DNA of 64,000 bases, from NCBI GenBank assembly GCA_001001555.1, contig LCKS01000001.1:82066-146065 (forward strand), in the 5' to 3' direction. Source of the DNA: Candidatus Amesbacteria bacterium GW2011_GWC2_45_19. Its GTDB lineage: Bacteria > Patescibacteriota > Microgenomatia > CAZETR01 > Amesbacteraceae. How positions within the stretch are numbered: the stretch's first letter is position 1; the number at the start of each line of letters is the position of its first letter. Both the position numbers and the translations under genes were made by a program. The notes under the pieces were generated by a model. That model did not search any database. It was not told where the DNA came from and saw only the letters and a list, made by a program, of their open reading frames with translations. Below are positions 5,754 to 34,202 of this stretch, piece after piece.

Positions 5754-6516
5754 ACCTCTGCTTTCGGTCATAATTCCCGCCTACAACGAAGAAAAAAGGC
5801 TGGGTTCTCATTTGGAACTGGTATTGAAATTTTTTCGTTCTCGCTACCCCAACTTTGAGTTGATTATTGTCGACGACGGAAGTAACGATGCTACCGCCCG
5901 GACAATATCTGCCGCAATCCCCAAAGAACCTCGCGCTCATCTCATTACATACCAACCCAACCGGGGCAAAGGTTATGCCGTAAGAAAAGGAGTTCTGGCT
6001 TCGCGCGGCGACCCGGTTCTTTTTATGGATGCCGATTTGTCTACCCCCCTGTCCCAGGTTCCTAAAATTTTGCAGGCCCTTTGGGGGGCTGATATTGTTA
6101 TCGGTTCCCGGGGTCAGGCCAAATCCGATATCCGTCAGCGCCCTCCACTTTTCCGCAGATTAGCTTCGTTTATATTTGACCAGATTAAATATGCTTTAGT
6201 CGGCTTGCGCCGCTTCAAGGATACTCAATGCGGATTTAAAGTTTTCCGCGGATCTATCGCTCGCCAATTGTTTGCCCAAAGCCAAGTTAACCGTTTTATG
6301 TTTGACGTAGAGATTTTATATCTGGCTGAACAAGCTAGAATGATTATTCGCGAAATACCGGTCACCTGGGCCGACGCTCCCGATAGCCACGTGCGTTTTT
6401 GGGAAGGAGTGGTCAGCATGTTCCGTGACCTCTGGCGCATCCGCCGCATACACCAGGGACACTCCTTTAAGGTTAGTCCTTTTAAGGCTAAAGATCGATC
6501 ACGGAGTTCTGAATAA
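5740..6516 (+). CDS. GT2 polyprenyl-phosphate sugar synthase (DPM1/GtrB-like); C-terminal ~20 codons read through REP-like repeat copy A
   Basis: LSVIIPAYNEE...IIVDDGSNDAT...MDADLS...QCGFKVF; last residues ...HQGHSFKVSPFKAKD are encoded by the REP sequence. Confidence 0.7.
   Translation: MASVKPLLSVIIPAYNEEKRLGSHLELVLKFFRSRYPNFELIIVDDGSNDATARTISAAIPKEPRAHLITYQPNRGKGYAVRKGVLASRGDPVLFMDADLSTPLSQVPKILQALWGADIVIGSRGQAKSDIRQRPPLFRRLASFIFDQIKYALVGLRRFKDTQCGFKVFRGSIARQLFAQSQVNRFMFDVEILYLAEQARMIIREIPVTWADAPDSHVRFWEGVVSMFRDLWRIRRIHQGHSFKVSPFKAKDRSRSSE
6456..6483 (+). repeat. REP-like repeat copy A (GGGACACTCCTTTAAGGTTAGTCCTTTT)
   Basis: One of three near-identical direct copies flanking the RAYT gene. 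Confidence 0.7.
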
Positions 6517-7180
6517 CGCTAATAGAGGCCTCTTCTAATCTTTGATCTTCCACAAAAGACTCATATGAGTTTGTACCAGCCGCAGCAAAGTATCCCAAGA
6601 TGTCTTGTGGCTTTACCCACTCCTGGTTGATCCTCCCCAGGTAATTGGGATAAGATGACGGTTGGGGACACTCCTTTAAGGTTAGTCCTTTTTGAATAGG
6701 GTTGCGATGGATGTATCTAGTGAGATGAAGGAGTTGTTCTTCAGTTTCGACCAAAACAGCCTTGTAAGTATCCTGGAAAAGACCGCCAACCCGTTTATCA
6801 TGACGGTGATTAAAGTATTGAGCATAACGGGTAGCAAGAGATCTCATGAATTTCTCAATTCCTCGCTCATTCTTTTGTTTTATCAATAAATGAAAGTGGT
6901 TTGGCATCAGACAGTAAGCCCGTAAATCAATTTCTCCAGCGAAATTATTCATCCTCAACAACTTAGCTGCTTCCGATTTTTCCTTTGGTGAAGAATCGGG
7001 ATCCGCAATTATCTGAGCTAAACTACTTACGTCTTTAGGGGACAAATACTCTTTTAAGTAAGACAAAAAGACAGCTTCGTCTTGATGGTCAACAAATATC
7101 GTTCTTTTTTCCACCCCCCGGTTATAGATATGATAATAACCGTTAGGAAGATAATCTTTGACTTTGTTTCTGGCTGGCAT
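6488..7180 (-). CDS. REP-associated tyrosine transposase (RAYT; IS200/IS605-like HUH Y1 transposase)
   Basis: N-term YHIYNRG, HUH motif NHFHLLI, catalytic Tyr context RYIHRNP. ORF reads through REP copy B, so the true C-terminus may be shorter (~160 aa). Confidence 0.65.
   Translation of the reverse strand: MPARNKVKDYLPNGYYHIYNRGVEKRTIFVDHQDEAVFLSYLKEYLSPKDVSSLAQIIADPDSSPKEKSEAAKLLRMNNFAGEIDLRAYCLMPNHFHLLIKQKNERGIEKFMRSLATRYAQYFNHRHDKRVGGLFQDTYKAVLVETEEQLLHLTRYIHRNPIQKGLTLKECPQPSSYPNYLGRINQEWVKPQDILGYFAAAGTNSYESFVEDQRLEEASISVIQNSVIDL
6665..6693 (+). repeat. REP-like repeat copy B
   Basis: GGGACACTCCTTTAAGGTTAGTCCTTTTT; lies inside the 3' part of the RAYT ORF. Confidence 0.7.
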
Positions 7181-7182
7181 AG

Positions 7183-7210
7183 GGTTACTCCTTTAAGGTT
7201 AGTCCTTTTT
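7183..7210 (+). repeat. REP-like repeat copy C
   Basis: GGGTTACTCCTTTAAGGTTAGTCCTTTTT, 3 nt upstream of the RAYT start codon; followed by tandem TAGACTAAAT x2 at 7239..7258. Confidence 0.7.
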
Positions 7211-7274: not shown

Positions 7275-8733
7275 ATGAAAATCAACGCTAAAACGATAAT
7301 AATTGGACTTTCAATATTACTTCTGGCAACTACCCTTCGTTTTTGGAATCTCAATTCATTGCCCATTTTTGCGGATGAAGCCATTTATGTGCGCTGGTCC
7401 CAGGTCATGCGCGCCGAATCCTCCTTACGTTTCTTGCCTCTCTCGGACGGCAAACAGCCTCTATTCATGTGGCTCACCATTCCTTTTTTGCGCATTGGCT
7501 GGCCTGGGCACAGTCATAGGTATCGGCCTAGCTTCCTACTTTCTATTTTCTAATATCAGGTTATCAATACTCACTACCCTGCTGGCCGCTGTCCTGCCAT
7601 ACCTGGTTTTCTTCGACCGGATGGCCCTGGCAGATAGTTTATTGGCTATGTTTTTAGTTTGGACATTTAATTTTTCTTATTTGTCTTTTATTCACCGGCG
7701 GTTAGACTTAGCCATGTTTGCCGGTTTCGCTCTGGGATTTGCCTGGCTGACTAAATCTCCCGCCATCTTCGCTTTCTTTCTCCTCCCTCTCAATTTTCTT
7801 TTTATACCTAAATATTCAGCCAAAAATATTCTAATTTCTAGTTTCTATTTTCTGGTTTCTGTCGCCATTGCCTTCGGCATGTATAATATTTTGCGTTTGG
7901 GCCCGGAGTTCCATCAGATTGCCTTGCGTAATGCAGACTATGTTTTTCCGCTGGCCGAAATTTTGCGTCATCTGCTGGATCCGCTCCTGCCCCATCTTAA
8001 AGATTCTTTTCTCTTTTTTGCCTACTTTCTCACTCCGCTAGGGCTGCTGGCCGCTATTACCGGCATTCTGGCCGGAGGCCGGTCTCGTTGGCGGACTCGT
8101 CTGGTCTTGGCCGCTTGGTGGCTAGGGCCGGTGCTGGTTCAATCCGCCATCGCCAGAGCCTTCACTGCCCGTTATTTATTGTTCACCGTTCCCTTTGCCG
8201 CGATTTTGATTGGCCACGCTTTGGAACATATTGGTCAGCGTACCCAAAAGCACTTTCTATCAATGGCTGCCGCCGGTCTGATTATCCTTCCGGCTTTGGC
8301 CATGGATTATTTGGCTGTTGCCCGCCCTGAATCTTTACCCCTACCCCGGATCGAACGGTCTGGCTATTTGGAAGACTGGACAGCCGGTTACGGTCTGCGG
8401 GACGTAGCCCAACGATTGCGCCAGTACGCCGCTGCGGGTCCGGTTTTGGTCGGCAGCGAAGGCTTTTTTGGCACCCCATTTAACGCTTTGCAACTATATT
8501 TAAACGATGTTTCCAACGTCCGTGTCATTGGCGTTGGTGTCTGGATAGACTCCGTCCATGAAAAACTTAAGAATTCCTTAGCTGATAACCAGGTGTTTTT
8601 AGTTGTTAATTCCACCCGCCTGCACGCCGACCCGGATCAAATAGGGCTAAAACTCATCGTCAGTTACCCCAAAGCTTACCGTCCCGACGGCACCCGCGAG
8701 TATCTGCTATTTTTCCAAGTTTTATCTAAATGA
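7275..8733 (+). pseudogene. GT-C (PMT_2-like) glycosyltransferase interrupted by a +1 frameshift in a T6 tract (7484..7489)
   Basis: Frame 0 gives the genuine N-terminus (ADEAIYVRW...KQPLFMWLTIPFL) and stops at 7553. The +1 frame continues with genuine TM-rich sequence (CALAGLGTVIG...) to 8733. Removing one T restores a single 485-aa ORF. Confidence 0.55.
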
Positions 8734-10448: not shown

Positions 10449-10516
10449 TGGCGGTGTAAATATGATATAATCAGAAAATAGCTTTTGCCCTCGGATCCAA
10501 ACTGAATATTGAATTC

Positions 10517-10555
10517 CGATAATGTAAAAATAACTTCATGGCGGAAGAAGTGACG
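10517..10555 (+). repeat. Left copy of 39-nt direct repeat bracketing the VapBC cassette; includes a relic start codon and 6 codons (MAEEVT) of wzx
   Basis: cgATAATGTAAAAATAACTTCATGGCGGAAGAAGTGACGC matches 11240..11278 at about 36 of 39 positions with 1 indel. Confidence 0.7.
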
Positions 10556-10564
10556 CCAGCGAAC

Positions 10565-10602
10565 TTCAAGGAGTTGACAAGGGTTCCTTGAAGGGGTATG
10601 CT
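10565..10602 (+). promoter_or_regulatory. vapB promoter with operator-like inverted repeat
   Basis: TTGACA (10574-10579), 17-nt spacer, TATGCT (10597-10602); 8-bp inverted repeat TTCAAGGA/TCCTTGAA straddles the -35. Confidence 0.45.
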
Positions 10603-10611
10603 TTCCTTGAA

Positions 10612-10857
10612 ATGACTTATACTGCTACTCTCACTGGCAAGCAACAGCTCACTATCCCGGCCGATCTCTTCCGCCGACTCAATTGGAAAATTGGCCAAAA
10701 AGTTCTTATTTCCCAAAACGGCAGCGTGTTATCTGTCACGGCTGCCTTAGACCTGATAGACAGACTGGCAGGATCGGTACCATTACCCAAAAAGTTTAAG
10801 GGGTTGACCATTGATCAGATTATTGACCGGGCCACTAGTGAAAATCACTCCAAATGA
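10612..10857 (+). CDS. vapB: VapB antitoxin, AbrB/MazE/SpoVT-type swapped-hairpin DNA-binding domain
   Basis: MTYTATLTGKQQLTIPADLFRRLNWKIGQKVLI; 4-nt ATGA overlap with the PIN gene. Confidence 0.6.
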   Translation: MTYTATLTGKQQLTIPADLFRRLNWKIGQKVLISQNGSVLSVTAALDLIDRLAGSVPLPKKFKGLTIDQIIDRATSENHSK

Positions 10858-11234
10858 CATTTGTCGACACTAATTATTTTTTGAGATTTCTTCTAGCTGA
10901 TGTCTCCTCCCAACACAAGCTGGCCAAAGCCCTTTTCCAACAAGCCGCCGGGGGCAAAGTTTCTTTGTTTACATCCGCCGTCGTCATCTTTGAAATATAT
11001 TGGGTTCTTCTCTCTGTATATAGCAAAAACAAAGACCAAATTACCGCCACTTTAGACTCTTTACTAGACATGAGTTTTATAGATTTCGAGCACCACTCCT
11101 TGCTAAAACAAGCCATATCTCTATACGCACATTCTTCTCTCGGATTAGTCGACGCATTTAATCTTTTCTATGCCAAATCTTTGAACGCTAAGGATTTTAA
11201 AACCTTTGACACCACGCTCTCCCGCCACTTCTAA
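10854..11234 (+). CDS. vapC: VapC toxin, PIN-domain ribonuclease
   Basis: FVDTNYF (Asp1), IFEIYWVL (Glu), LVDAFNL (Asp) PIN acidic residues; 126 aa. Confidence 0.65.
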   Translation: MTFVDTNYFLRFLLADVSSQHKLAKALFQQAAGGKVSLFTSAVVIFEIYWVLLSVYSKNKDQITATLDSLLDMSFIDFEHHSLLKQAISLYAHSSLGLVDAFNLFYAKSLNAKDFKTFDTTLSRHF

Positions 11235-11239
11235 ACTAC

Positions 11240-11278
11240 CTATAATGTAAAATGACTTCATGGCGGAAGAAGTCACGC
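11240..11278 (+). repeat. Right copy of 39-nt direct repeat (native promoter/start of wzx)
   Basis: cTATAATGTAAAATGACTTCATGGCGGAAGAAGTCACGC. Confidence 0.7.
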
Positions 11279-12720
11279 TGGGGGATGTAGATTTGACCAC
11301 AGTCAAAGCCAGAACCGTTTCGGGCGTAGTCACGCTTATCAGCCGCTCATTCTTGCTCCAATTCGTAGCCACCGGCGGCTTTTTGGCCCTGTCTATTTTT
11401 TTGGGCCGTCCGGAAATTGGCCTGTTTATCGCCGTTAACGACCTGGTTTCCATCTTAGGCTATTTTTCCGACATCGGCCTGGCCGCATCCTTGATTCAAA
11501 AAAAGGACCAAGTAACCATCACCGACCTGCGTACCACCTTCACCATCCAGCAAATTATAGTATTAATTCTCATTTCTCTATCTCTATCTCTATCTCCGTG
11601 GCTGTTTAATTTCTACCACATTGGCAATGGAGGAACCTGGCTGTTTTATAGCTTATTGGCAGCTTTTTTCCTGGCTTCCCTGAAAACTATCCCTTCGGTT
11701 ATTTTGGAGCGCAAACTGCAATTTAAAGAGCTGGCGGCCGTCGAGGTGGTAGAGACCGTCATCTTCTATAGTATTGCGGTTCTTTTGGCTTGGCGGGGCG
11801 GGGGAGTCATGTCATATGCCTGGGCGGTCGTCTTCCGGGGCCTAATCGGAACTGTTATGATTTACTGGCTATCTCCCTGGAAAATCGGTCTGGCTGTCTC
11901 CATATCTTCTCTCAAATCTCTGCTCTCATTTGGATTGCCATATCAAATAAATTCTTTAGTGGCCACCGTCAAGGACCGGTTTATAAATATTATTCTCTGG
12001 AAAATTATCGGCGCCGACGGGGTGGGCATTATTGGCTGGGCTCAAACCTGGTCCCAAAAACCCCTGCGCTTTATTATGGATAATGTCACTCGGGTCACCT
12101 TCCCCAGCTTTGCTCGTCTCCAAGACAATCCCGCAGAATTGCGTCAAGCAATTGAGCGCACCCTGTTTTTTATCACCCTGATTACTTTCCCGATTCTGGC
12201 CGGCCTGGCCGTCTTTGCTCCCCAATTAATCACGCTCATTCCCCGTTATTCCAAATGGCAGCCGGCTCTTCTGGCTCTGGTTTTGTATTGTTTTAATTCT
12301 GCCTGGGCCAGCGTCTCTACTCCCCTGACCAATACCCTTAACGCCTTGGGCAAAGTCAAAACTAATACTTACTTAATGCTTATGTGGACCGCCCTCACCT
12401 GGATACTTGTCCCATACTTTGCCTACCGCCTAGGCTACAACGGAGTGGCCTATGCTACAGCTTTGATTGCCCTTTCGTCAGTCGTTCCCATTATTATCGT
12501 CAAGCGCCTAACCCACTTTAGTTTAATAAACGGCGTTCTCAAACCTTTAACTGCCACTTTGGTAATGATTGCCGGAGCTCTTCTGCTCACTCCGTTGCCC
12601 TTGATAATTAACATGATTATCTCCCTGTTACTATTTACCATTACTGTTTACTTATTGGTCGGTCCGGATCTATTTGTGCAAACATGGAAAAAAATAATCA
12701 CCGCCCGCCTTGGTCGCTAA
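11260..12720 (+). CDS. wzx: Wzx-type oligosaccharide flippase (MOP/polysaccharide biosynthesis protein family)
   Basis: 486 aa, ~14 TM, N-terminal layout typical of O-unit flippases; internal (TCTCTA)x3 microsatellite at about 11575..11595. Confidence 0.6.
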   Translation: MAEEVTLGDVDLTTVKARTVSGVVTLISRSFLLQFVATGGFLALSIFLGRPEIGLFIAVNDLVSILGYFSDIGLAASLIQKKDQVTITDLRTTFTIQQIIVLILISLSLSLSPWLFNFYHIGNGGTWLFYSLLAAFFLASLKTIPSVILERKLQFKELAAVEVVETVIFYSIAVLLAWRGGGVMSYAWAVVFRGLIGTVMIYWLSPWKIGLAVSISSLKSLLSFGLPYQINSLVATVKDRFINIILWKIIGADGVGIIGWAQTWSQKPLRFIMDNVTRVTFPSFARLQDNPAELRQAIERTLFFITLITFPILAGLAVFAPQLITLIPRYSKWQPALLALVLYCFNSAWASVSTPLTNTLNALGKVKTNTYLMLMWTALTWILVPYFAYRLGYNGVAYATALIALSSVVPIIIVKRLTHFSLINGVLKPLTATLVMIAGALLLTPLPLIINMIISLLLFTITVYLLVGPDLFVQTWKKIITARLGR

Positions 12721-30675: not shown

Positions 30676-31490
30676 TGAAGTATCACCCCTCCTCACTACG
30701 TTCGGTTTCCCCTCTTAAATTAAGAGGGGACAAAGGGGTGATATTGTCTGTTGTTCTTGCCACTCGCAATGAGGAGGCCAATCTAACTCGTTGTCTGGAG
30801 GCGGTAAAATCGATTGCCAATGAGATAATCATTGCGGACGAGCAATCAACCGACAAAACAGTGGGAATAGCCAAAAAATTCGGGGCAAAAGTCATTTCTG
30901 TTCCGCATCAGGAAAATTTCCATATCACCAAAAATATCGCCATAGACGCCGCCCGTGGAGACTGGATCCTCCAATTAGATGCCGACGAAGTCGTCTCCCC
31001 CGAACTGGCTTGCGAAATTGTCTCTACTATCAACCATGAATCATCAACCATGAACGGTTATTGGGTTAACCGCCGCAATTGGTTTCTCACCCGCTTCTTA
31101 TCTAAAGGCGGCCAATATCCGGATCCCACTCTCCGCCTGTACCGCCGGGGAAAAGGAAGACTTCCGGCCAAAGACGTGCACGAGCAAGCACAGATCCAGG
31201 GTCCAACCGGCCGCTTGCGGAACGATTTGTACCACTACCGGGATACCAGTTTCGCCAAGTACTTAGATGGTTTTAATCGCTATTCATCGTTTTTGGCGGC
31301 AAATATTAACCCCGAGGTCAATTTGCGGCAAACTCTCAACTACCTGGGCTGCAAACCAGTGGTAACGTTTTGTAAAATCTATTTTCGTCACCGGGGTTAC
31401 GTTGACGGTTACCCTGGTTTTGTCTTTGCCCTCTTTTCCGGCCTCACCCACGCCATCGCCTATATTAAATATTGGCAAAGGTTATTATGA
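30675..31490 (+). CDS. GT2 glycosyltransferase (short soluble type); true start possibly GTG at 30738
   Basis: VVLATRNEE...EIIIADEQSTDKT...LDADEVV. The first 21 codons (KYHPSSLRSVSPLKLRGDKG) are encoded by a palindromic mini-element and are probably not native coding sequence. Confidence 0.65.
   Translation: MKYHPSSLRSVSPLKLRGDKGVILSVVLATRNEEANLTRCLEAVKSIANEIIIADEQSTDKTVGIAKKFGAKVISVPHQENFHITKNIAIDAARGDWILQLDADEVVSPELACEIVSTINHESSTMNGYWVNRRNWFLTRFLSKGGQYPDPTLRLYRRGKGRLPAKDVHEQAQIQGPTGRLRNDLYHYRDTSFAKYLDGFNRYSSFLAANINPEVNLRQTLNYLGCKPVVTFCKIYFRHRGYVDGYPGFVFALFSGLTHAIAYIKYWQRLL
30681..30743 (+). repeat. Palindromic mini-element (same architecture as 23326..23380) at gene junction
   Basis: Outer perfect 10-bp arms TATCACCCCT / AGGGGTGATA; inner CCCCTCTTAA-A-TTAAGAGGGG (30709..30729). 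Confidence 0.65.
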
Positions 31491-32464
31491 TCAAGGTTGG
31501 TTTCATTACGGCTCCTCTTCACGACGCTAACGCAGTCCGCGGCGTCGGGTCATATACCCGCCGCCTTCTTCCGGAACTCAAAAAACAAACCTCTGATTTT
31601 GGATTTGAAATCGTTGAAAATGACACGTCTGCAGAGATTATCCACTATCCGTATTTTGATTTATTTCGGCACACTTTACCAATATTCAAAGATGCCAAGA
31701 CTATAGTTACCGTCCATGACGTTATTCCTTTGGAATTTCCCGATCATTATCCACCCGGCCTGCGCGGCTGGTTTAATCTGCAACTACAAAAACTAGCCCT
31801 GAGCGAAGTCGAAGGGGTGATTACCATTTCGTACCACTGCGTTAAGACAATTCATAAGTACTTAAACGTACCTCACGGCAAGTTGAAATTGGTTTACGAA
31901 GCCGCTGACTCCATATTTAAAAAGATTTCTAAACCCAAAAATAAATTTAACCTGCCCAAAAAATTCGTTCTCTACGTTGGAGATGTAAATTGGAATAAGA
32001 ATATACCCAATTTAATTAAAACCTGTGAACAAATAAATTACCCATTGGTAATGGTGGGTAAACAAGCAGCTGAAGTAGAAAAATTGGACTTAAATCATGC
32101 CGAACTGCGGCATTTACAAGGAGTAGATTGGAGTAAAGTTATGAAATTGGGATTCGTGTCCGCTGCAGACCTAGTGGACATTTACAATTTGGCCACTGTT
32201 TATTGCCAGCCTTCATTTTCAGAAGGTTTTGGCCTGCCGGTGGTGGAAGCTCTGGCTTGCGGTACTCCGGTGGCCTGCAGTAATACTTCATCTTTGCCGG
32301 AAATAGCCGGCGACTCTGCCACCTACTTTGATCCCCATGATGTAAACGATATGGCTAAAGCTATCAAAAAGGCCAAGCCTAGCACTGTACAACCCAAGTT
32401 TTCCTGGGCCAAAGCCGCCGCCCAAACTTTGCAAGTCTACCAGGAAGTATTAGAGTTGGTTTAA
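31487..32464 (+). CDS. GT4 (GT-B fold) glycosyltransferase
   Basis: PSFSEGFGLPVVEALACGTPVACSNTSSLPE; ATGA overlap with upstream gene; last 30 nt duplicated downstream of BrnTA. Confidence 0.7.
   Translation: MIKVGFITAPLHDANAVRGVGSYTRRLLPELKKQTSDFGFEIVENDTSAEIIHYPYFDLFRHTLPIFKDAKTIVTVHDVIPLEFPDHYPPGLRGWFNLQLQKLALSEVEGVITISYHCVKTIHKYLNVPHGKLKLVYEAADSIFKKISKPKNKFNLPKKFVLYVGDVNWNKNIPNLIKTCEQINYPLVMVGKQAAEVEKLDLNHAELRHLQGVDWSKVMKLGFVSAADLVDIYNLATVYCQPSFSEGFGLPVVEALACGTPVACSNTSSLPEIAGDSATYFDPHDVNDMAKAIKKAKPSTVQPKFSWAKAAAQTLQVYQEVLELV
32425..32452 (+). repeat. Left copy of 28-nt direct repeat bracketing the BrnTA cassette (3' end of GT4 gene)
   Basis: AACTTTGCAAGTCTACCAGGAAGTATTA vs 33049..33076 AACTTTGCAAGTCTACCGGGAAGTATTA (27/28). 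Confidence 0.7.
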
Positions 32465-32467
32465 CTA

Positions 32468-32496
32468 TTGACAATCGATATTGTTTGTCATACACT
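32468..32496 (+). promoter_or_regulatory. brnT promoter with operator-like inverted repeat; -10 box 7 nt upstream of GTG start (leaderless)
   Basis: TTGACA(32468-32473)-17 nt-TACACT(32491-32496); inverted repeat TGACAA...TTGTCA overlaps the -35 and spacer. Confidence 0.45.
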
Positions 32497-32502
32497 ATAT
32501 AA

Positions 32503-32787
32503 GTGAAATATGTGGATTGGAATGCAGCCAAAAACGAGATTCTAAAAACAGAGAGAGGAATTTCGTTTGAAGATGTTATGGCAGCATTCGTAGAAGAAGG
32601 TTTACTTGACATTATTAAACATCCAAATGAACAAAAGTATTCTCATCAAAAAATGATTATAGTTAATGTTGACGATTATGTTTATCTGGTTCCGTTTGTC
32701 GAAGACGATGAAAAGATTTTTTTGAAAACCATACTGCCCAGCCGAGAAGCAACAAAACGTTATCTAATCCAAAAAGCAAAAAAATGA
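32503..32787 (+). CDS. brnT: BrnT-like toxin (DUF497 ribonuclease toxin of type II TA)
   Basis: GTG start; VDWNAAKNEILKTERGISFEDVMAAF...IIVNVDDYVYLVPFVEDDEKIFLKTILPSREATKRY fits DUF497/BrnT layout. Confidence 0.6.
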   Translation: MKYVDWNAAKNEILKTERGISFEDVMAAFVEEGLLDIIKHPNEQKYSHQKMIIVNVDDYVYLVPFVEDDEKIFLKTILPSREATKRYLIQKAKK

Positions 32788-33050
32788 GCCAAAAATATTT
32801 TGATTTAACTTCAGAAGAACAAAGATTACTAACTTCATTCGAAGCTGGTGAATGGCGTAGTGTCGCGGATTTGGAAAAATCTAAGAGACTGTATCGTCAG
32901 TATGCAGCAAACACTCTGGCTAAAGCCAAGAATGTAAATTTAAGATTGGCAGAAAAAACAGTCTTGAAATTTAAAGCAAAAGCAGCTTCCGAAGGAATTC
33001 CTTATCAGACTCTCATGTCTTCAGTACTTCACAAGTACGCAAACCAATAA
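32784..33050 (+). CDS. brnA: BrnA-like antitoxin (RHH/CopG-like, DUF4415-type)
   Basis: C-terminal VNLRLAEKTVLKFKAKAASEGIPYQTLMSSVLHKY is the BrnA signature; ATGA overlap with brnT. Confidence 0.6.
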   Translation: MSQKYFDLTSEEQRLLTSFEAGEWRSVADLEKSKRLYRQYAANTLAKAKNVNLRLAEKTVLKFKAKAASEGIPYQTLMSSVLHKYANQ

Positions 33051-33076
33051 CTTTGCAAGTCTACCGGGAAGTATTA
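33049..33076 (+). repeat. Right copy of 28-nt direct repeat bracketing the BrnTA cassette
   Basis: Starts at the last two nt of the brnA stop codon. Confidence 0.7.
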
Positions 33077-33089
33077 AAATGATCCGTAC

Positions 33090-34202
33090 ATGAGTTTTTC
33101 CCGCCTGTTTAAGATTTTTGTCCTCTGGCAAGCCGCAATCATTATCGTGACTATGGCCGCCCAATATTCTTCACTGCCCCTGCGGGAAACGTTTTTGGGC
33201 AGTGGCACTCAAGCGTATGTGGAAAAGCCCTGGGCTTACTCCCGGGAAAATTTTGACGGCATGCATTACACGTATATCGCCAGCCGCGGCTATGGCTATT
33301 CCCAGCAGGCTTTCTTCCCTCTTTATCCGGCTCTCATGCGCCGCCTGATGACCCTGCCAATTCTTAACAACGCCGTCACTGCCGGCGTTTTAATTTCTGT
33401 AGTGGCTTTTCTGGCCGGCCTGTATCTGTTCATCAAATTAATTCTTTTGGATTATTCCTCATCTGTTGCTAAGTGGACTATCCTGGCCCTGCTGTTTTTT
33501 CCCGCCAGTTTCTTCTTTACTTCCGTATACACCGAAGGCCTATTCTTTTTCCTGACTATTGCCGCTTTTTACTCCGCCCGCACCCGCCACTGGTTGCTGG
33601 CGGGTATATTCGGGGCCCTGGCCAGCTACACCCGTTTCATCGGCATCTTTCTCTTTCCGGCTCTTTTAATCGAATGGTGGCAGCAGGGCCGCCGCTTCAA
33701 GCACTTCTTGCCTCTTCTTTTGATTCCGCTCGGCTTAATAATTTACATGAATTATTTGAATAAGACAACGGGGGACCCCTTAGCCTTTTTCCACGTCCAG
33801 GTGAATTTTGCCCAACTGCGAAGCGAGAAACTCATTCTGCTTTATCAAGTTTTCTGGCGTTACCTCAAAATGCTTCTGACCGTCAACCGTTCCGACCCGC
33901 TGTATCTGACCATCGTTCTCGAATTTGTGACCGGAGTGGTATTTCTAGTAACCACTGTCTACTCGTTTATCAAACACCGCCTGTCCTACGCCGTCTTTAA
34001 CTTCTTGACCTATATTATCCCCACCTTGACCGGCACCTTTACCTCTTTGCCCCGCTACGTTCTGCTTTGTTTCCCCTCGTTCCTGCTAATTGGCGAGTTA
34101 TTATCCCGCTCGCCCCTAGCCCGCAAAATTATCCTCGGCATCTTCGCTGTCGCCTTTATTATTTTTCTCTCCTTCTTCGCCCGGGGATATTGGGTGGCAT
34201 AA
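33090..34202 (+). CDS. Polytopic membrane protein, PIG-V-like (GT76-like) mannosyltransferase family; paralog of 421..1467
   Basis: FDGMHYTYIASRGYGYSQQAFFPLYPAL motif; 370 aa, ~9 TM. Confidence 0.45.
   Translation: MSFSRLFKIFVLWQAAIIIVTMAAQYSSLPLRETFLGSGTQAYVEKPWAYSRENFDGMHYTYIASRGYGYSQQAFFPLYPALMRRLMTLPILNNAVTAGVLISVVAFLAGLYLFIKLILLDYSSSVAKWTILALLFFPASFFFTSVYTEGLFFFLTIAAFYSARTRHWLLAGIFGALASYTRFIGIFLFPALLIEWWQQGRRFKHFLPLLLIPLGLIIYMNYLNKTTGDPLAFFHVQVNFAQLRSEKLILLYQVFWRYLKMLLTVNRSDPLYLTIVLEFVTGVVFLVTTVYSFIKHRLSYAVFNFLTYIIPTLTGTFTSLPRYVLLCFPSFLLIGELLSRSPLARKIILGIFAVAFIIFLSFFARGYWVA

Follow-up and report, generated by a model that had tools for sequence, protein, structure and literature searches.

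A brnT-brnA toxin-antitoxin cassette bracketed by copies of a glycosyltransferase gene end in a surface-glycan locus of Candidatus Amesbacteria

The movement of chromosomal toxin-antitoxin (TA) modules and other small defence-type cassettes that have no obvious mobility genes is a long-standing loose end, and the uptake of accessory genes by the ultra-small, gene-dense genomes of the Candidate Phyla Radiation (CPR) without operon breakage is poorly documented. Among elements that occupy the edge of a host gene, the integrative and conjugative elements (ICEs) ICESt1 and ICESt3 reside in the 3' end of fda, with 27-bp repeats in the case of ICESt1, and SXT resides in the 5' end of prfC. In Alteromonas, additive flexible-island cassettes occupy integration hotspots that can be recognised by a repeated portion of the target gene (PMC4898812), and in Acinetobacter plasmids, dif modules carrying TA genes (brnT/brnA and higBA-type) are bounded by 28-bp pdif sites (PMC6449649, PMC7885321). 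We describe here a brnT-brnA (brnTA) cassette in a 64,000-nucleotide stretch of Candidatus Amesbacteria bacterium GW2011_GWC2_45_19 (the window; GCA_001001555.1, contig LCKS01000001.1, positions 82,066 to 146,065), which is flanked by a 28-nt direct repeat of the 3' end of the upstream GT4-family glycosyltransferase gene, and whose repeats and cassette together appear to be younger than the genes on either side. Within the incomplete coverage of the literature available to us, we found no description of TA cassettes bracketed by long protein-gene-end duplications.

A repeat scan of the window places the two copies at 32425-32452 (the left copy, DR-L) and 33049-33076 (the right copy, DR-R), with 27 of 28 positions identical (96%), a single A/G mismatch at position 18 and a start-to-start spacing of 624 nt, just where an initial annotation made from the sequence alone had located them. 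DR-L is still coding, as TLQVYQEVL of the glycosyltransferase, and DR-R is non-coding, seemingly a relic of the original GT4 gene end. DR-R starts inside the TAA stop codon of brnA (33048-33050), and the annotation's description of the second copy as lying immediately after that stop is thus correct to within 2 nt. With up to three mismatches allowed, the 27-nt core ACTTTGCAAGTCTACCGGGAAGTATTA occurs at only these two sites in the window, and no match was obtained in 100 dinucleotide-preserving shuffles. The source is a Rifle groundwater population of Candidatus Amesbacteria (records include GCA_001002655.1, and proteins are named for GW2011_GWB1_47_26 and GWC2_45_19), and since five independent assemblies from ENA, JGI, NCBI and Logan (L001 and L003-L006) agree at every base of the repeat junctions, the duplication is real and not a product of assembly. 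The same repeat-flanked cassette is present at the same site in two diverged lineages, L055 (Logan, BrnT 87% identical) and L062 (Hainich aquifer, BrnT 89%), with repeats matching at 30/30 and 26/27 positions respectively and the same 624-nt spacing as in the window. Chance similarity or an assembly artefact would have to survive the shuffles, the five assemblies and the recurrence in two other lineages, and is barely conceivable as an explanation. Two independent short contigs end close to the repeats, with L002 (window 31935-33080) stopping 4 nt past DR-R and L052 starting 3 nt before DR-L (at 32422), and the assembly graphs seemingly branch at the edges of the common cassette-plus-repeat segment. 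We considered these contig ends as evidence of variants and set them aside as uninformative; L052 equals the window for 1,245 nt, continues into unrelated sequence and is probably chimeric. Separately, L006 (GCA_001000075.1, same population) is missing 110 nt of the GT4 gene (32099-32208) and 115 nt of brnT (32629-32743) and keeps brnA, which reflects either a toxin-deleted variant or an assembly error.

The GT4-family gene (31487-32464, on the + strand as are all features unless stated otherwise; Pfam Glycos_transf_1, 95 bits; alternative TTG start at 31472) is given a length of 325 aa by the gene callers, and its last 13 codons consist of the left repeat and a new four-codon tail, ELV and a stop, reaching to 32464. 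Homologues mostly end ...VY(R/Q)E(I/V)L*, and the window protein ends ...VYQEVL with ELV* added; one distant homologue ends ...QTLQVYREVLK, which is the pre-insertion end reconstructed from the right copy. The 12 nt that give the replacement tail and its TAA stop (32453-32464) form the left edge of the inserted DNA; 5 of the 12 positions vary among the three lineages, as compared with 1 of 27 in DR-L, and homology to L064, a brnTA relative at another site (AATTTAACTATTGACA, cassette-type), extends to about 5-8 nt from DR-L. The insert comprises 596 nt (32453 to 33048) running from a -35 box to a stop codon, and the proposal that the DNA between the repeats is a complete brnT-brnA unit is supported by Pfam matches to both products. 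A promoter-like site, TTGACA-17-TACACT (32468-32496; 10/12 matches in a scan), is kept in L054, L055, L062 and L064 and agrees with the earlier suggestion of an own promoter; the operator suggested alongside it would correspond to the palindrome TGACAATCGAT/ATTGTTTGTCA at 32469-32490, which overlaps the promoter-like site and is a putative operator.

The brnT gene (32503-32787) starts with GTG six bases past the -10 box, with an alternative GTG at 32512, and since its MKY(V/F)DW start is conserved in L063, a 72% relative, the mRNA is probably leaderless. The product matches PF04365 over residues 6-86 of 94 (E = 6e-7) with 30.1 bits, below the curated cut-off of 34.5; an NCBIfam scan of BrnT gave no match, and there are 336 homologues at E <= 1e-5, of which, among the 120 listed, most carry PF04365 and a few are named BrnT family toxin. 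The brnA gene (32784-33050) overlaps brnT by 4 nt (ATGA, 32784-32787), and its product exceeds the cut-offs for PF14384 (26.4 bits, cut-off 26.1) and PF12441 (28.2 bits, cut-off 28). By domain content, a toxin domain followed by an overlapping downstream CopG-type antitoxin, the pair fits a BrnT/BrnA type II TA system. The cassette has a GC content of 0.346 as compared with 0.432 for the window, and falls in the lowest 2% of 600-nt windows. On the right, DR-R together with the next 4 nt holds a second promoter-like sequence, TTGCAA-16-TAAAAT (33053-33080), ending 9 nt before the ATG of a PIG-V-like mannosyltransferase gene (33090-34202; PF04188, 35.9 bits) that begins 13 bases past the DR-R end, and we infer that DR-R may act as a promoter for this gene; the TTGCAA-N16-TAAAAT motif is also upstream of the PIG-V-like orthologue in L011, where the site is empty.

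Loci with the same site were found through the PIG-V-like protein, and 66 loci were fetched in all. The GT4|PIG-V site is empty in L007, L008, L010 and L011, each with a single repeat copy, and the pre-insertion form is therefore known: in the first three the GT4 stop overlaps the next start (TTATGA), and in L011 the GT4 open reading frame (ORF) runs a few codons further (...REVIKSGLLP) to a TGA overlapping the next ATG. Across all 66 loci, two core copies are found only where brnTA is present, and no locus (0 of 66) has the duplication without the cassette. Comparison with related genomes had been named in the initial annotation as the way to distinguish an insertion-generated duplication from an ancestral one, and the alignments bear out the former, with the duplication evidently generated by insertion. 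In L009 and L012 the same junction is occupied by a gene for a DUF4143 AAA ATPase, without the brnTA-type duplication and with one core copy; the left junction in L009 is no more than 3 nt from that of brnTA, the right flank is the same AAATGATCCGTACATG, and any duplication is at most about 5 nt. The ATPase genes of these two close relatives, at 594-1932 in L009 and 2646-4004 in L012, differ from each other. Upstream of the L012 ATPase, a 12-nt direct repeat, TAAACTGGTACT, occurs with its copies at a distance of 33 nt and contains a -10 box of the leaderless type.

BrnT relatives with 70-85% identity are also found in unrelated contexts (L054, L063, L064 and L066), as in L054, where brnTA sits between a GH26 gene and an AbiEii gene. 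None of these four off-site loci has flanking repeats of at least 10-12 nt. The nucleotide homology of the window to L054 runs from the -35 box to the brnA stop codon, and the recognisable unit is thus a bare transcription unit without end structures. This comparison, the unrelated contexts of the BrnT relatives and the low GC content together show a foreign origin of the cassette at the GT4|PIG-V site. At L066 (655-680, compared with window 33040-33090), the six bases past the brnA stop, ATGATC, are the same as the window bases after DR-R.

The brnTA cassette is considerably more similar between lineages than the genes beside it. Between L055 and L062 the segment from the left repeat through the right repeat has 95.2% nucleotide identity, as compared with 65% for the 300 nt of GT4 just upstream and 82.5% for the PIG-V gene, and synonymous differences number 18/112 in brnT+brnA as against 119/180 in the flanks (0.16 vs 0.66; Fisher p = 2e-17). 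The cassette is again less diverged synonymously than the flanks in the window-L055 (p = 3e-4) and window-L062 (p = 7e-4) comparisons. Because the cassette and repeats are far less diverged than the flanks, their common ancestry is, as judged from these alignments, more recent than that of the adjoining genes, and this, the main comparative result, was not part of the initial annotation's reading. The six repeat copies of the three lineages contain 2 singleton changes in 162 nt, and 25 of the 45 positions to the left of DR-L vary, such that the left divergence break coincides with the outer boundary of DR-L; on the right, conservation of the first ~25 nt past DR-R in all lineages makes the break more diffuse. 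L062 is itself a mosaic, in which the GT4 flank is L012-type (with a common 9-nt indel) and the cassette is L055-type. The base before the core was considered as a sign of gene conversion (A/A in the window, G/G in L055) and discarded as uninformative, since L062 has A/G.

A companion TA cassette with a duplication had been reported in the same locus, and it is confirmed as vapB-vapC, 22 kb upstream of brnTA. The cassette (10563-11238; Pfam) has its own TTGACA promoter region and encodes VapB (MazE/AbrB-type, 10612-10857; Pfam) and VapC (PIN domain, 10854-11234; Pfam). Its left duplication copy (10516-10556) is 41 nt and contains a -10 box and the first 7 codons of a flippase gene, and the 40-nt right copy (11239-11278) runs into the functional Wzx-like flippase gene (11260-12720); the copies differ by 3 mismatches and 1 indel. 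The site is empty in L058, with a 31-nt overlap between the upstream gene and the flippase start, and L060 and L061 are without the cassette. L056 and L057 hold the same vapBC cassette (91.6% identical) with the same right junction, a different left junction and a duplication of about 10-14 nt, and the left cassette end, ACTTCAAGGA(G/A)TTGACA, is the same in the window and L056/L057 despite the different left junctions. As with brnTA, the cassette is less diverged than its surroundings: window-L056 synonymous differences are 30.5/142 in vapBC vs 418/738 in the flanks (p = 3e-15), and all 13 of the other real matched genes have pS >= 0.56, as compared with 0.17-0.26 for vapB and vapC. The last codons of vapC (11218-11227) are complementary at 9 of 10 positions to the first flippase codons (11261-11270), 33 nt downstream, and could form a stem across the junction. 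A further cassette, in L055 (2588-4272), lies at the next junction, PIG-V|GT2, and comprises an AbiEi/AbiEii pair and an internally deleted remnant (44-aa ORF) of an L009-type DUF4143 ATPase cassette. This AbiE cassette has no flanking duplication. Duplication lengths across the cassettes of the locus thus range from 0 to 41 nt (brnTA 27-30, vapBC 41 or ~10-14, L009 ATPase <=5, AbiE none), and the idea that both TA modules carry one common signature finds no support. What the cassettes do show is that gene boundaries of the glycan locus are recurrent landing sites for promoter-to-stop cassettes.

These data bear on whether the cassette has spread between lineages or has been inherited from a single ancient insertion, with vertical descent in the window, L055 and L062 lineages and replacement of the flanks by divergent alleles. 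In the latter case the likeness of the repeats would be due only to coding constraint on the left copy and promoter constraint on the right. The locus is clearly mosaic, with window-L056 neighbours ranging from 31% to 91% amino-acid identity, and replacement of glycotype clusters through homologous recombination is documented in other bacteria (PMC4898812). Both variable repeat sites also fall in the promoter spacer, and conservation of the repeat therefore goes only weakly beyond what coding and -35/-10 constraint would impose. The close population is likewise without an empty allele, as vertical descent would have it. The reconstructed empty-site junction, GCCGCCCAAACTTTGCAAGTCTACCRGGAAGTATTAAAATGATCCGTACATGAG, has 0 matches in JGI metagenome contigs; a degenerate pattern for the PIG-V 5' end matched only the window type and the L012 type in the same contigs; and every full-length protein in the 90% GT4 cluster has the occupied 325-aa form. 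To be set against this, vertical descent needs flank-replacement breakpoints exactly at both cassette edges, for two cassettes and in several lineage pairs, and all 13 other real window-L056 genes are more diverged than vapBC. Moreover, L062 pairs an L012-type GT4 with an L055-type cassette, and L012 and L009 hold a different cassette with one core copy. We therefore consider a single ancient insertion unlikely, while still giving it appreciable weight.

We favour instead an explanation that we judge to have about an even chance of being correct, in which the repeat is a target duplication arising from capture of a foreign promoter-to-stop brnTA unit at the GT4/PIG-V boundary and subsequently reused for spread. 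The foreign, self-contained 596-bp unit would have been captured at the boundary of the GT4 and PIG-V-like genes, in a packed surface-glycan locus, through host break-repair or short-homology recombination of incoming DNA and with no element-encoded enzyme, presumably producing a staggered or template-switch duplication. The duplication may then have been retained because both copies are useful, in that the left copy completes the conserved GT4 C-terminus, which is extended by three codons and a stop from the cassette edge, and the right copy would keep intact the sequence that originally lay upstream of the next gene, promoter-like site included. The repeat-flanked cassette would subsequently have passed between diverged Amesbacteria lineages at the same site, by crossovers at or beside the conserved 27-nt repeats for which the conserved stretch of 27-50 nt could provide the homology. 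A break in divergence at the repeat is evident in the alignments. The route of transfer would be either a double crossover within the repeats or the Campbell-type integration of a circle that had looped out, whose expected junction is GCAAACCAATAACTTTGCAAGTCTACCRGGAAGTATTAGAGTTGGTTTAACTATTGACA. Since the same logic holds for vapBC, where the duplication has another length, what the two cassettes have in common is plausibly gene-boundary insertion under selection in a gene-dense locus, and not a fixed enzymatic stagger. Repair-mediated capture, one of the mechanisms put forward in the initial annotation, thus continues to be the best fit, and there is no sign of a new dedicated insertion enzyme. 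Published work describes Patescibacteria as naturally competent and as having kept homologous-recombination genes (PMC12455944).

The closest described processes for such a capture are homology-facilitated illegitimate recombination, a term already in use (PMC6382021), and short-homology integration during natural transformation. As there, integration would proceed without element enzymes and with local duplications or deletions of recipient DNA, and one homologous junction would be paired with one variable junction, as seen for vapBC, in which the right junction is constant and the left differs. In the brnTA cassette both junctions are identical in three lineages, and no clear microhomology was found at the cassette ends. 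Experimentally described anchors are usually well over 100 bp, whereas the only conserved brnTA stretch is 27-50 nt. We know of no demonstration of such recombination in Patescibacteria.

Several observations weigh against this preferred explanation. The steps of the mechanism are all read indirectly, and a duplication of 27-41 nt is long for simple end-joining. The brnTA junctions are identical in three lineages and the vapBC left end is identical in two different junctions, and both facts are also compatible with an element that has defined ends and is moved by a recombinase acting in trans. The contigs and the 90% GT4 cluster described above yielded no empty-site allele in close relatives, and the contigs no circular form, which leaves excision and re-integration hypothetical. 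The proposed promoter role of DR-R draws on a consensus match and one distant relative. All of the calibration genes are from glycan loci, which may be unusually divergent; none of the window ORFs scanned is a housekeeping gene, these being glycan-synthesis genes. Finally, removal of exactly the 28-nt DR-R makes the 3' ends of the window and L066 colinear through the ATGATC bases, for which the preferred explanation offers no account. The chance of such a match is about 1 in 4096 per relative inspected, and it may be a hint that the right copy arose in two steps, although the ATPase-occupied L009 has the same ATGATC bases, which speaks against this.

An alternative with a dedicated enzyme is site-specific integration, in which the repeats are attL and attR of a minimal cassette whose attP is a copy of the host gene end and which depends on a recombinase elsewhere in the genome or in a helper, comparable to a cis-mobilisable element (CIME), an integron or a Xer module. 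Duplication of a host 3' end (brnTA) or 5' end (vapBC) with an element-supplied replacement end is a classic tyrosine-recombinase footprint, and this is the arrangement found here, with DR-L and the ELV* tail on one side and the DR-R relic on the other. The identical junctions in three lineages with diverged flanks, and the sharp break in identity at the outer edge of DR-L, are also as expected, and there are known cases of small TA modules with a 28-bp recombination site on either side (PMC6449649). However, no recombinase, IntI included, is present among the window ORFs scanned or in the annotation of the relatives' neighbouring genes, which is the scope of all our searches for such enzymes, the exception being an IS200-like Y1 gene with its own hairpin repeats unrelated to those of the cassette; the other genes covered are glycan-synthesis or TA genes. 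Palindromic arms of the dif-like 11-6-11 kind are missing from the repeat, in which the inner arm bases GCAAG and GGGAA do not complement each other, and the 28-mer folds no better than shuffles. The L009 and L012 cassettes sit in the very same junction with one core copy, the vapBC duplication differs in length between two lineages, the off-site brnTA relatives are without flanking repeats, and the lack of an empty site in the JGI contigs and of a circular form counts here too. We regard site-specific integration as rather unlikely on balance.

The resemblance to ICESt1, ICESt3, SXT and the integrase-less derivatives of such elements (CIMEs) lies in a direct repeat of about 27 nt at a host gene 3' end (5' for vapBC) and in the replacement end supplied by the element. 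ICEs and CIMEs span kilobases and either encode a tyrosine recombinase or demonstrably rely on a borrowed one, whereas the brnTA element consists of a promoter and two genes only, with its right end abutting the repeat inside a stop codon, and other cassettes occupy the brnTA site without a repeat. Like the pdif modules, brnTA is a sub-kilobase TA unit with ~28-bp bounding sites, occurrence in varied contexts and no recombinase of its own; pdif sites, though, have a XerC-6-XerD organisation with palindromic inner arms, are in inverted orientation around the module and are not host-gene fragments (PMC6449649), unlike the direct, non-palindromic and host-gene-derived brnTA repeats. The Alteromonas islands share with this locus a fixed gene edge with the target's direct repeat downstream of the cassette, near-identical cassettes in divergent backgrounds while glycan clusters drift, and TA genes among the cargo (PMC4898812). 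Their targets are mostly tRNA and tmRNA genes (with the repeats there in tRNA genes) and integrases are implied (PMC4898812), whereas the brnTA cassette is a single 0.6-kb transcription unit at a protein-gene boundary in an operon-like glycan locus, and for brnTA and vapBC no integrase is seen and duplication length varies. The features that distinguish the present cassettes from known systems are thus minimal cargo, protein-gene-boundary targets in a packed operon, no visible recombinase and variable duplication length. A more speculative extension, which we hold to be quite doubtful, is that promoter-to-stop accessory cassettes in Patescibacteria constitute a class of minimal mobile elements whose sole 'recombination site' is a 27-41-nt copy of a host gene edge. 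The two repeats would allow such a cassette to loop out and then to insert at the homologous gene boundary in relatives, by short-homology recombination or with a recombinase acting in trans, and the repeats would be regenerated each time; the system would be recombinase-less or helper-dependent, with att-by-mimicry.

Capture by an integron or by target-primed (retro-element) insertion had also been suggested in the initial annotation, and neither suggestion withstands the comparison. TA cassettes are common in chromosomal integrons, and brnTA resembles them in being compact and ORF-sized, in having its own promoter as some of them do, and in belonging to a set stacked at a defined site; target-primed insertion, for its part, yields duplications of variable length. 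But there can be no attC, as DR-R starts inside the brnA stop and leaves zero non-coding bases between, and when 32990-33090 was folded on both strands only short local stems were obtained (z = -1.0 and -1.6). No G|TTRRRY boundaries or attI were found at the brnTA cassette, its possession of a promoter also speaks against an integron, and the flanking repeat is host coding sequence. With respect to a retro-element, the unit includes its own, untranscribed promoter and off-site homology starts from the -35 box, and the copied unit is therefore DNA-defined rather than transcript-defined. A reverse transcriptase domain was not found in the ORFs scanned, nor was one or an IntI annotated in relatives, and an Rfam scan matched no family. 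Capture of either type is very improbable. The annotation's doubt about a classical transposase, by comparison, is well founded: no inverted repeat pairs the cassette ends, brnT and brnA are the only genes present with no transposase among them, and 27-41 nt greatly exceeds the usual 2-15 nt. IMG/VR viral contigs contain no close relatives of BrnT or VapC.

The GT4|PIG-V locus provides a clean natural series, in which the site is empty, is filled by either of two different occupants, and holds one and the same occupant in three diverged backgrounds, and the series shows a cassette that travels with a short duplicated edge of a host gene. Should the repeats prove to be the recombination substrate, a conserved gene boundary of 27-50 nt would suffice for spread between species-level lineages; if they do not, the locus is still a good example of the way in which selection shapes the scars of insertion into compact operons.

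The window ORFs scanned and the annotated neighbours in relatives make up a single surface-glycan locus containing many GT2, GT4 and PMT-like transferases, epimerases, an aminotransferase, methyltransferases and a flippase, with no tRNA genes. The window and L056 neighbouring genes are very uneven in identity (31-91% at the amino-acid level), and a mosaic history of the locus is therefore indicated. The IS200-like Y1 (RAYT-type) gene (6488-7180, - strand) is bracketed by 28-nt REP-like hairpins at 6456-6483 and 7182-7209, and a third, 100% identical hairpin copy lies inside its ORF (6665-6692). We considered these repeats (6456-7209) as a third gene-edge duplication and rejected them as such; they are REP-like hairpins and duplicate no host gene edge. 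The last 19 codons of the GT2 gene upstream of RAYT run into the left hairpin. The gene and its hairpins are at the same place in L058 and are absent from L056 and L060, where the flanking genes overlap. A PMT_2-family gene (7275-8733) is seemingly split by a frameshift near 7492, with frame 0 corresponding to residues 1-73 of the L058 orthologue and frame +1 to residues 87-500, and could be a pseudogene, a sequencing error or a case of recoding.

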